The notes under the pieces were generated by a model that searched no databases, was not told the origin of the DNA, and saw only the letters and a list, made by a program, of their open reading frames with translations. Below are positions 22,377 through 23,048 of a stretch of DNA of 64,000 nt, piece after piece (within the stretch, counting starts at the first letter, position 1; every line of letters begins with the position of its first letter). Origin of the DNA: Escherichia phage KM01; the sequence record PV018827; one strand, written 5' to 3'. The position numbers and the translations under genes were made by a program.

Positions 22377-22642
22377 TATTCTATTCCACGCTCTTTCAGA
22401 GCTTCTAACAATCCGTTGTGATTGGCAGCACATTCTGTGTACTGGTCCTGATACCACTCCAACGTAGTGGCTAGTGCTTTTCCTTGAGCACTCTCTAAAA
22501 GAGGTAGGTCAACCCTACATTCAGCTTTTAGGTTTGTTGGTAAGGGCATTGATTGCCTGCTGTTGTCGCTCATTGAACAAGCTGATAAACTAAAAGCTAG
22601 CAAAATCCCCGTACAACTCAATAGCTTTTTCTTTATATGCAC
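22376..22642 (-). CDS. small outer-membrane-type lipoprotein
   Basis: Likely GTG start at 22642 after AAGGAG; signal MHIKKKLLSCTGILLAFSLSAC with lipobox LSAC; ~62-aa mature protein with 2 further Cys. Confidence 0.55.
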
Positions 22643-23048
22643 ACCTAGCTCCTTCCAGTGTATCATGAAAACCAAGCCAAATAACCTTATCCTCGAATCC
22701 TATTCGAGCAGTCCATTTGTTAACATCCTTCCTATACCCGACACCTTTTATGCCTGTTATAGAATTCTTCTGAGCAGATGTATTCATCTGATTCTGCGCA
22801 TTGGTTGCTTTTCTTAGGTTAGTCCAAGAGTTGTTAGATTTAATCTGATCTTTGTGGTCAATATCAGTATCAGGGATTTCCCCTGTTTTTAAATACCAAG
22901 CCACTCTGTGCGCTTTATGCGCTTTCCCATTAAACCTCACAATAATGTATCCAGCATCTATCAAACAACCAGCCTCTTTTCCAGCAAACCTAGAGTTCCA
23001 TTGATTGCTCTTCTTTTCAGAGCTTCTCCACGTTAACTTTCCTGACAC
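22590..23048 (-). CDS. free-standing HNH-AP2 homing endonuclease
   Basis: HNH_3-type core KAHKAHRVAWYLKTGEIPDTDIDHKDQIKSNNSWTNLRKATNAQN plus AP2-like DNA-binding segment GIKGVGYRKDVNKWTARIGFEDKVIWLGFHDTLEGARCAYKEKAIELYG. Confidence 0.7.
   Translation of the reverse strand: MSGKLTWRSSEKKSNQWNSRFAGKEAGCLIDAGYIIVRFNGKAHKAHRVAWYLKTGEIPDTDIDHKDQIKSNNSWTNLRKATNAQNQMNTSAQKNSITGIKGVGYRKDVNKWTARIGFEDKVIWLGFHDTLEGARCAYKEKAIELYGDFASF

Follow-up and report, generated by a model that had tools for sequence, protein, structure and literature searches.

The spanin genes, which overlap by 70 bp in phage T5, are separated in its relatives Shivani and phiR201 by a gene for a putative GIY-YIG endonuclease (Kongari 2018, PMC6139136). 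Compared to T5, the differences are confined to the extreme C-terminus in the inner-membrane spanins (i-spanins) of these two phages and to the signal sequence in the outer-membrane spanins (o-spanins), and the authors stated that the new N-terminus of the o-spanin must still encode the lipoylation signal (Kongari 2018, PMC6139136). Here, we analyzed a comparable locus in a stretch of 64,000 nucleotides (nt) of Escherichia phage KM01 (sequence record PV018827, in the following called the window), a phiEco32-like podophage (Kuravirus, Gordonclarkvirinae), in which an HNH-AP2 endonuclease gene is found between an i-spanin and an o-spanin gene.

In both cases, a free-standing putative homing endonuclease gene is present at the position where the genes for i-spanin and o-spanin overlap in relatives. 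Shivani and phiR201 combine a GIY-YIG endonuclease with T5 spanins, whereas the window combines an HNH-AP2 endonuclease with spanins of the JH2/phiEco32 kind. The intervening open reading frame (ORF) of Shivani overlaps the o-spanin start by 13 nt, in contrast to 53 nt in the window, where the HNH ORF takes in about 18 of the 22 codons of the signal peptide. The present locus further differs from that of Shivani and phiR201 in having three allelic types of cassette and a mosaic pattern that is direct evidence of transfer.

Endonuclease insertions are also known from the 'genes in pieces', such as nrdA of Aeromonas phage Aeh1, split by mobE, and T4 genes 39 and 60 with mobA. There, too, the insertion is located in coding sequence and function is kept by a flanking new stop and new start; however, one gene becomes two polypeptides, whereas here two overlapping genes are separated, each still encoding one polypeptide with an end taken from the cassette. 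With I-HmuI (1U3E, matched by sequence and tentatively by fold) the window protein shares the HNH_3 catalytic motif DH...N...N, as do the phage HNH homing and nicking endonucleases among which the T5-like 'P-Tfl' HNH genes are grouped. I-HmuI is intron-encoded and has other DNA-binding modules, whereas the window gene is free-standing and has a predicted AP2 fold as its DNA-binding module. Magnani and colleagues reportedly presented HNH-AP2 endonucleases in 2004 as bacterial and phage relatives of the plant AP2/ERF domains. The window protein has the same order of an HNH nuclease followed by an AP2 domain with a three-stranded sheet and a helix, but here the coding sequence of the last AP2 helix doubles as that of a lipoprotein signal peptide. 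To our knowledge, such a dual reading is not known for other HNH-AP2 members.

A comparable arrangement is present in phage SU7 (NC_070980), whose record lists an Rz-like spanin, an HNH endonuclease and an 'O-spanin' of 88 amino acids (aa) with a start overlapping the HNH gene; SU7 differs from the window in belonging to Suseptimavirus and in carrying another allele (type 2, 65% amino-acid identity). A literature search found no published analysis of the SU7-type spanin/HNH arrangement.

Taken together, the data presented below make it likely that a free-standing HNH-AP2 homing endonuclease cassette was inserted midway into a spanin overlap of 116 nt and supplied the ends of both genes. The locus would thus be a natural example of a selfish endonuclease that enters doubly coding DNA without killing its host, since it brings substitute ends, one of them overprinted on its own frame. 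It would also explain one route from the 'overlapped' to the 'separated' spanin architecture.

Anatomy of the cassette in the spanin locus

All genes of the spanin/HNH locus are encoded on the minus strand. The features of the locus are:

22586..23130, minus strand: HNH cassette, type 1, 545 nt, defined by alignment to phiEco32 and SU10 (both without cassette) and a junction table of 14 genomes
23072..23416, minus strand: i-spanin (Rz-like), 114 aa; phrog_1152, called 'Rz-like spanin' in RefSeq relatives, with phiEco32 in the JH2 i-spanin family
23072..23130, minus strand: i-spanin tail brought by the cassette in place of the native one, SLFNQRQKEAERVLKSKE plus stop, from comparison with the native tail
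22590..23048, minus strand: HNH_3 and AP2 endonuclease ORF, 152 aa from a GTG, from Pfam, PHROGs, a PDB sequence match and the predicted fold
22376..22642, minus strand: o-spanin, 88 aa, GTG start; phrog_2425, signal-peptide properties, 88-aa equivalents called in SU7 and contig L024
22590..22642, minus strand: dual-coding stretch, 53 nt; frame 0 is the HNH C-terminus, frame +1 the o-spanin start
22649..22656, minus strand: Shine-Dalgarno sequence GGAAGGAG of the o-spanin, read directly from the sequence
23086..23181, minus strand: remnant ORF of the ancestral o-spanin start, 31 aa, ATG at 23181
23435..23452, minus strand: terminator-like hairpin (AGCCACC-TCCG-GGTGGCT, then a T run) directly upstream of the i-spanin

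An earlier note, made from the letters of the window, had described an HNH-AP2 gene at 22590-23048 between an i-spanin-like protein and a lipoprotein whose start it overlaps, and Pfam, PHROGs and fold comparisons bear out this order as well as the overlap, which amounts to 53 nt (GTG at 22642). Its i-spanin candidate at 23072-23440 is indeed an Rz-like i-spanin (phrog_1152, 6e-35) with an N-terminal transmembrane segment (LGFIVFSALVFFGGM), but the predicted start is the ATG at 23416 and not the GTG at 23440, which is located inside the terminator stem. The proposal that the two flanking genes had formerly been adjacent was right in that they stood together before the insertion; as phiEco32 shows, they overlapped by 116 nt and were not merely adjacent.

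Numerous E. coli phages, SU10 and phiEco32 among them, match the 4 kb around the HNH locus with 97-98% identity, at only about 86% coverage in the best matches. phiEco32 and SU10 carry no HNH gene at this position, and the genes of their 116-aa i-spanin and 86-aa o-spanin (MRKLNQFFIMSALVMSMSAC|S...) overlap in different frames. The phiEco32 spanins have been listed as 'overlapped' (35417-35768 and 35272-35533, 116-nt overlap; Kongari 2018 supplement, PMC6139136), and phiEco32 shares one i-spanin family, JH2, with Felix O1 (Kongari 2018, PMC6139136). The native o-spanin starts inside the i-spanin gene (phiEco32), with an ATG that corresponds to the ATG at 23181 of the window. Since it codes in two frames, the overlap sequence is unusually conserved. 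In the window, the i-spanin is native up to residues ...DEYV, and the mature part of the o-spanin is identical to that of phiEco32-like phages including the curated phiEco32 o-spanin.

Alignment to phiEco32 and SU10 revealed a clean insert of 545 nt (22586-23130) between ...GATGAGTATGT and CAGCTTGTTCAA..., with edges that are ambiguous by 1-3 nt because TC/TCA is present at both ends. The insertion point lies 17 codons into the native o-spanin signal peptide and 20 codons ahead of the i-spanin stop. In order, the insert consists of 59 nt of i-spanin tail and stop, a 23-nt spacer, the 459-nt HNH ORF and 4 nt.

Another 13 genomes or contigs with this layout were detected by a search of phage genomes and public assemblies, and the cassette edges are the same across all 14 sequences. 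Judged by the amino-acid identity of the HNH protein to that of the window, they fall into type 1 (the window, E20-1, EK010, L010, L011 and L013; 93-100%), type 2 (SU7, PAS59, Bas86, Bas87 and L024; approximately 65-67%) and type 3 (L012 and L025; approximately 76%). In all three types the i-spanin frame runs 19 homologous codons into the cassette before it reaches a stop, giving a tail of the form LFNxRQxxAxxxLKxK(E/N)*. The replacement tail of the window, SLFNQRQKEAERVLKSKE, copies the native tail SLFNERQQQAINALTNKPKS at the protein level with other codons: nine of the first 15 codons of the type 1 tail encode the same residue as the native ones, eight of these nine by another codon. Differently coded same-residue codons number 9/9 in type 3 and 10/13 in type 2.

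The start of the type 3 tail (VKL, as at the native KBNP1711-type site) and the QQQAA of the type 2 tail (as in the native Suseptimavirus tail) may each be a weak hint of where these cassettes originated. The first tail residue, S or G, was considered as a genus marker and dropped, as the empty-site Suseptimavirus 101114UKE3 has S like Kuravirus. The HNH gene and the i-spanin are read in different frames in types 1 and 2 and share one frame in type 3 L012, where the HNH gene follows a single TAG; a stop codon always separates the two. A programmed -1 frameshift or stop readthrough from the i-spanin into the HNH gene was dropped as a candidate because the type 1 heptamer U_UUA_AAA, which is in the right frame, and the in-frame TAG of L012 are not conserved across types.

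At the other end of the cassette, a putative new o-spanin start (GTG at 22642) is located 53 nt inside the HNH ORF, with the Shine-Dalgarno sequence GGAAGGAG 6 nt upstream. This GTG aligns with an ATG in the type 2 cassettes, and all types have the aligned GTG or ATG start followed by a signal peptide of the form xKKKxxSCxxIxLAxxLxAC. In the window, the signal peptide reads M-HIKKKLLSCTGILLAFSLSAC (...LAFSLSAC), and its cassette-coded part HIKKKLLSCTGILLAFSL runs into the native SAC lipobox. The n-region has a charge of +3, followed by a hydrophobic region of 15 residues and the canonical lipobox LSAC. The equivalent ORF of 88 aa was predicted independently by the gene callers used for SU7 and for contig L024. 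Thus, frame 0 of the dual-coding stretch encodes the C-terminal helix of the AP2 domain (...CAYKEKAIELYGDFASF*), and the +1 frame the o-spanin start and most of the signal peptide; this arrangement is kept in all three cassette types. The possibility that AP2-coding sequence generally yields such a peptide was not borne out by four HNH-AP2 relatives at other loci (about 40% identity), in which no signal-peptide-like frame was found: three have stops in the frame and one encodes a hydrophilic peptide. We therefore regard the signal peptide as a specific feature of these cassettes, overprinted on the C-terminal helix of AP2.

The old o-spanin ATG at 23181 survives as the start of a dead-end ORF, MRKLNQFFIMSALVMSM-SLYLTRDRKKLRGF (MRKLNQFFIMSALVMSMSLYLTRDRKKLRGF), which stops short of the lipobox cysteine, and in type 2 cassettes a stop codon at the junction shortens this stub to 17 aa. 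The o-spanin is widely mis-annotated in GenBank and RefSeq relatives as an ORF of 57 aa lacking a signal peptide (e.g., L002 2379-2552), and in Bas86 and Bas87 (L005/L007 1462-2354) the i-spanin is annotated as a two-piece join across the cassette. The present arrangement hence has a consequence for annotation, in that most GenBank records give the 57-aa o-spanin and two join the i-spanin across the cassette.

These join annotations would agree with an alternative in which the HNH gene resides in an intron that splices itself, or in some other intervening sequence that can be removed, and splicing (junction ...GAGTATGT/CAGCTTG...) restores the overlapped message. HNH genes do occur in phage group I introns, among them I-HmuI, the nearest solved HNH structure, and the native downstream i-spanin frame is intact past the cassette. 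However, no Rfam group I or group II match was obtained with E values up to 10 for the window or up to 1 for three other cassette loci, and the HNH ORF leaves only about 86 of the 545 nt, not enough for an intron core. In addition, the i-spanin has a homologous replacement tail and stop in all three types, the o-spanin has its own conserved Shine-Dalgarno sequence, start and signal peptide within the cassette, and the BASEL paper offers no splicing evidence for the join. We therefore regard an intron as extremely unlikely.

Sequence and predicted fold of the HNH-AP2 protein

The HNH domain of ORF 22590-23048 was detected with Pfam HNH_3 (PF13392; 57.7 bits, cut-off 24.8), and the ORF belongs to phrog_99 'HNH endonuclease' (E 5e-57). 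An alignment of HNH homologues showed that the motif IDHKD...NN...NLR...QN is invariant, including the putative catalytic His (H65 of this alignment). Comparison of the HNH half with Foldseek gave a match to I-HmuI (1u3e) with a probability of 0.99 but an E value of 0.049 over 71 columns, in a region where the model has a pLDDT (predicted local distance difference test) of about 75.

For the C-terminal part, phmmer against PDB sequences matched the AP2 domain of WRI1 (E 2.3e-4). Residues 103-149 of the AlphaFold model (pLDDT about 87-92) form a three-stranded antiparallel sheet (strands 103-106, 111-118 and 121-128) followed by a C-terminal helix (131-149). The top six PDB fold matches found with Foldseek are all AP2 domains (WRI1, TEM1, AtERF1; probability 1.00, root-mean-square deviation 1.1-4.7 A, five of them at most 1.7 A). 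Because the WRI1 match, the predicted fold and the superposition on plant AP2 domains agree, we consider the predicted AP2 domain confirmed despite a sub-threshold Pfam score.

The nearest HNH genes beyond this site have approximately 41% identity and are free-standing genes at unrelated loci of T5-like and Felix O1-like phages. In the type 1 cassettes, the HNH start at 23048 is a GTG in the window and an ATG in L010 and EK010, located 21 nt after the i-spanin stop. In type 2, an ATT further upstream follows GGAGG by seven bases, and an upstream ATT in L012 is preceded by AAGGA. A weak or coupled translation of the HNH gene is plausible.

Distribution and exchange of the cassette

The earlier note had interpreted the HNH gene as a mobile-gene insertion and suggested to compare synteny with relatives. 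The site is uninterrupted in about 90 Gordonclarkvirinae records, and the HNH gene is present in only eight (six phages), so the gene at 22590-23048 is polymorphic, contrary to the fixed presence in relatives that the note had named as speaking against its proposal. Empty sites occur in both genera, for example in the Suseptimavirus 101114UKE3. In addition, about 210 records, mostly of Felix O1-like phages (Felixounavirus), have a contiguous match to 56 nt of the query across the site, several of them under annotated spanin genes, and a scan of IMG/VR with the i-spanin yielded five loci, all with an empty site.

The cassette of the window is 95.8% identical to that of E20-1, in contrast to 79% for the 5' part of the i-spanin. 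E20-1 and EK010 are SU7-like up to the 5' edge of the cassette and from there 95-100% window-like to the o-spanin stop. This suggests that their cassette was acquired from a window-like Kuravirus donor with one-sided co-conversion. Conversely, the flanks of L011 (type 1) and L012 (type 3) are 96-100% identical, whereas the identity drops to 56-86% across the cassette. Clusters of i-spanins from public data combine every tail type with N-terminal bodies of the MQNTL as well as the MEKLQ type, and the exact HNH protein of the window was also found on two metagenomic contigs with different backgrounds. Breakpoints lie within about 11 nt of the cassette edge. The HNH gene is hence mobile, because three alleles occupy one site, each in two spanin backgrounds, with sharp breaks of identity at the edges; these data, together with the empty sites, support the interpretation as an insertion. 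From the compared sequences, the pattern fits an actively exchanged free-standing homing endonuclease gene rather than an intron.

In two of the transfers across backgrounds (type 2 into the MQNTL-type L024, type 1 into EK010 and E20-1), the whole downstream o-spanin travelled with the cassette, and the upstream i-spanin of E20-1 and EK010, where the junction sequences were compared, is native to about 11 nt from the junction. Co-conversion in these transfers thus appears to have been one-sided. Empty sites vary exactly around the insertion point (GTCAGCTTG, GTCAAGTTG in KBNP1711, GTCCGCATG in NJ01 and GAATTTGTCAGC; including L021 KBNP1711, L022 ECBP2 and L023 NJ01), altering both the i-spanin (VSL, VKL, VRM) and the lipobox region of the o-spanin, and may represent cleavage-resistant forms.

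On the homing reading, the insertion would have split both overlapping spanin genes and the cassette would have repaired its own damage. The first 59 nt would provide the i-spanin with its C-terminal tail and stop; the last 53 nt would give the endonuclease its end in one frame and the o-spanin its start and signal peptide in the +1 frame, served by the Shine-Dalgarno sequence just upstream. The overlapped pair would thereby have become a separated trio of i-spanin, HNH and o-spanin with both lysis proteins still encoded and presumably still functional, and the element would persist in the overlap because both interrupted genes are restored. The endonuclease is expected to cut or nick the empty site (...GATGAGTATGT/CAGCTTGTTCAAYGAGCGACAACAGCAGGCA) in co-infecting relatives lacking the cassette, whereupon repair would copy the cassette in. 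The insertion would disrupt the recognition site in the carrier, and the heavy synonymous recoding of the duplicated tail may guard the carrier against cutting itself and against a deletion between the copies.

Several observations weigh against this reading. The AP2 profile (PF00847) scored below the Pfam gathering score (27.4 versus 33.3 bits, E 4e-6) and was rated 'weak' in precomputed matches, and the structure model as a whole is only of moderate quality (pLDDT 71). No Shine-Dalgarno site was found at the type 1 HNH start, and the start position is non-canonical in type 2 (GTT or GCT) and in L012 (GTC), with a TTG in L025. Since conserved N-terminal homology (FLSYDE; family motif 'L-x-Y-D-x-x-x-G') extends upstream of this position, the HNH start is uncertain, and some HNH alleles could be poorly expressed or decaying. 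Furthermore, the cassette types are old, as they share 65-76% of their amino acids and synonymous change has reached saturation in the tail, and because of this age the distribution could partly reflect ancient insertion, loss and ordinary recombination instead of ongoing homing.

Taken further, the latter argument leads to an old and immobile resident that entered once, in an ancestor of the Gordonclarkvirinae, and then diverged vertically into the three types, with loss from most lineages and general recombination producing the present distribution. The deep divergence of the HNH proteins between types, the near-saturated synonymous change of the duplicated tail, the uncertain or non-canonical HNH start codons and the mosaic nature of phage genomes in general would all be in line with such a history. 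It is nevertheless unlikely, as the HNH ORF is intact in all 14 cassette sequences examined, near-isogenic backgrounds (L011 and L012) carry different types, every type is found in both divergent spanin backgrounds, the breakpoints coincide with the cassette edge, and the spanins of the Felix O1-like outgroup are uninterrupted.

Another explanation would be that the HNH-AP2 protein has been domesticated by the phage, for competitor exclusion or for regulation of the lysis genes. Its coding sequence is interlocked with an essential part of the o-spanin, and its place after the i-spanin stop without a Shine-Dalgarno sequence would permit translational coupling to the lysis genes. Yet approximately 90% of the sequenced relatives lack the HNH gene, the closest relatives away from this site are the ordinary free-standing phage HNH genes with about 41% identity, and nothing in the data hints at a function other than that of an endonuclease. 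Domestication is accordingly very improbable in our view.

A homing origin may have been followed by entrenchment of the element, a proposal that we put forward only tentatively. The sole functional start and signal peptide of the o-spanin would now be inside the HNH ORF, and because of this location a simple deletion or decay of the HNH gene would abolish the o-spanin and be selected against. On this view, the cassettes would be 'addictive', the three alleles would compete with each other, each travelling as a unit of endonuclease and spanin fragment, and the signal peptide would have evolved de novo on the AP2 helix. If this is true, nothing but a precise exchange for an empty-site allele can remove the element. 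Since isolated phages with (SU7, EK010, Bas86, Bas87) and without the cassette (phiEco32, SU10, 101114UKE3) are at hand, the locus offers a tractable system for homing, the choice of dual-coding targets and entrenchment.

Two further HNH genes and neighboring features

Outside the spanin locus, the following features of the window are of relevance:

54640..55062, minus strand: second polymorphic HNH gene (HNH_3, phrog_14913), from profile matches and presence or absence among relatives
54574-54649: tRNA-Arg(tct), overlapping the HNH gene at 54640-55062 by 10 nt
18606..19007, minus strand: HNH-family core protein (phrog_3106), kept in all relatives spanning the locus

The earlier note had listed both as further HNH genes, the one at 54640-55062 abutting the tRNA-Arg gene. 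PHROGs assigns both to HNH families, and the contact with the tRNA gene was found as the 10-nt overlap, but only the gene at 54640-55062 is polymorphic. It is present in just a handful of relatives, as diverged alleles: those of YW01, Bas91 and CHD5UKE1 are 97-100% identical to the window gene, those of O18-011 and YF01 about 77%, and 1-6af, 1-6bf and FH3 have partial copies. It is probably also a homing element. The gene at 18606-19007, in contrast, is assigned to the HNH family by PHROGs only and does not behave as a homing element: as it is present in every relative spanning the locus (72/72, at least 80% coverage), it is a core gene that stands outside the mobile-element story.

The 3' end of this core gene is overlapped by 143 nt by an ORF of 120 aa as listed (18386-18748, minus strand), which has a weak match to a WYL domain (E 5e-4) below the cut-off. 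The real start of this ORF is probably further downstream.

Close to the spanin locus, SU10 (L001) carries a different HNH gene of 414 nt (2933-3346), flanked by a 248-aa gene on one side and, on the other, by the i-spanin, whose terminator it directly precedes. Its site corresponds approximately to 23453-23473 of the window, which lacks this gene, and is another hot spot for endonucleases, about 0.4 kb away from the cassette site. RefSeq annotates an HNH endonuclease somewhere in the same 4-kb region of CHD5UKE1, WFI101126 and Ptacy1532. A promoter scan gave matches no more numerous than in shuffled sequence.

Where the 1488-aa gene and the minus-strand genes converge, a stretch of 33 nt (18033-18065) lies between them that covers a hairpin resembling a terminator (stem AAGCCCC/GGGGCTT). 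This stretch has a 100% identical counterpart in an intergenic site of RB43/KP15-like T4-type phages (Klebsiella, Enterobacter, Cronobacter, Citrobacter), where it is labelled 'terminator' in some records; approximately 150 records match this short stretch alone.

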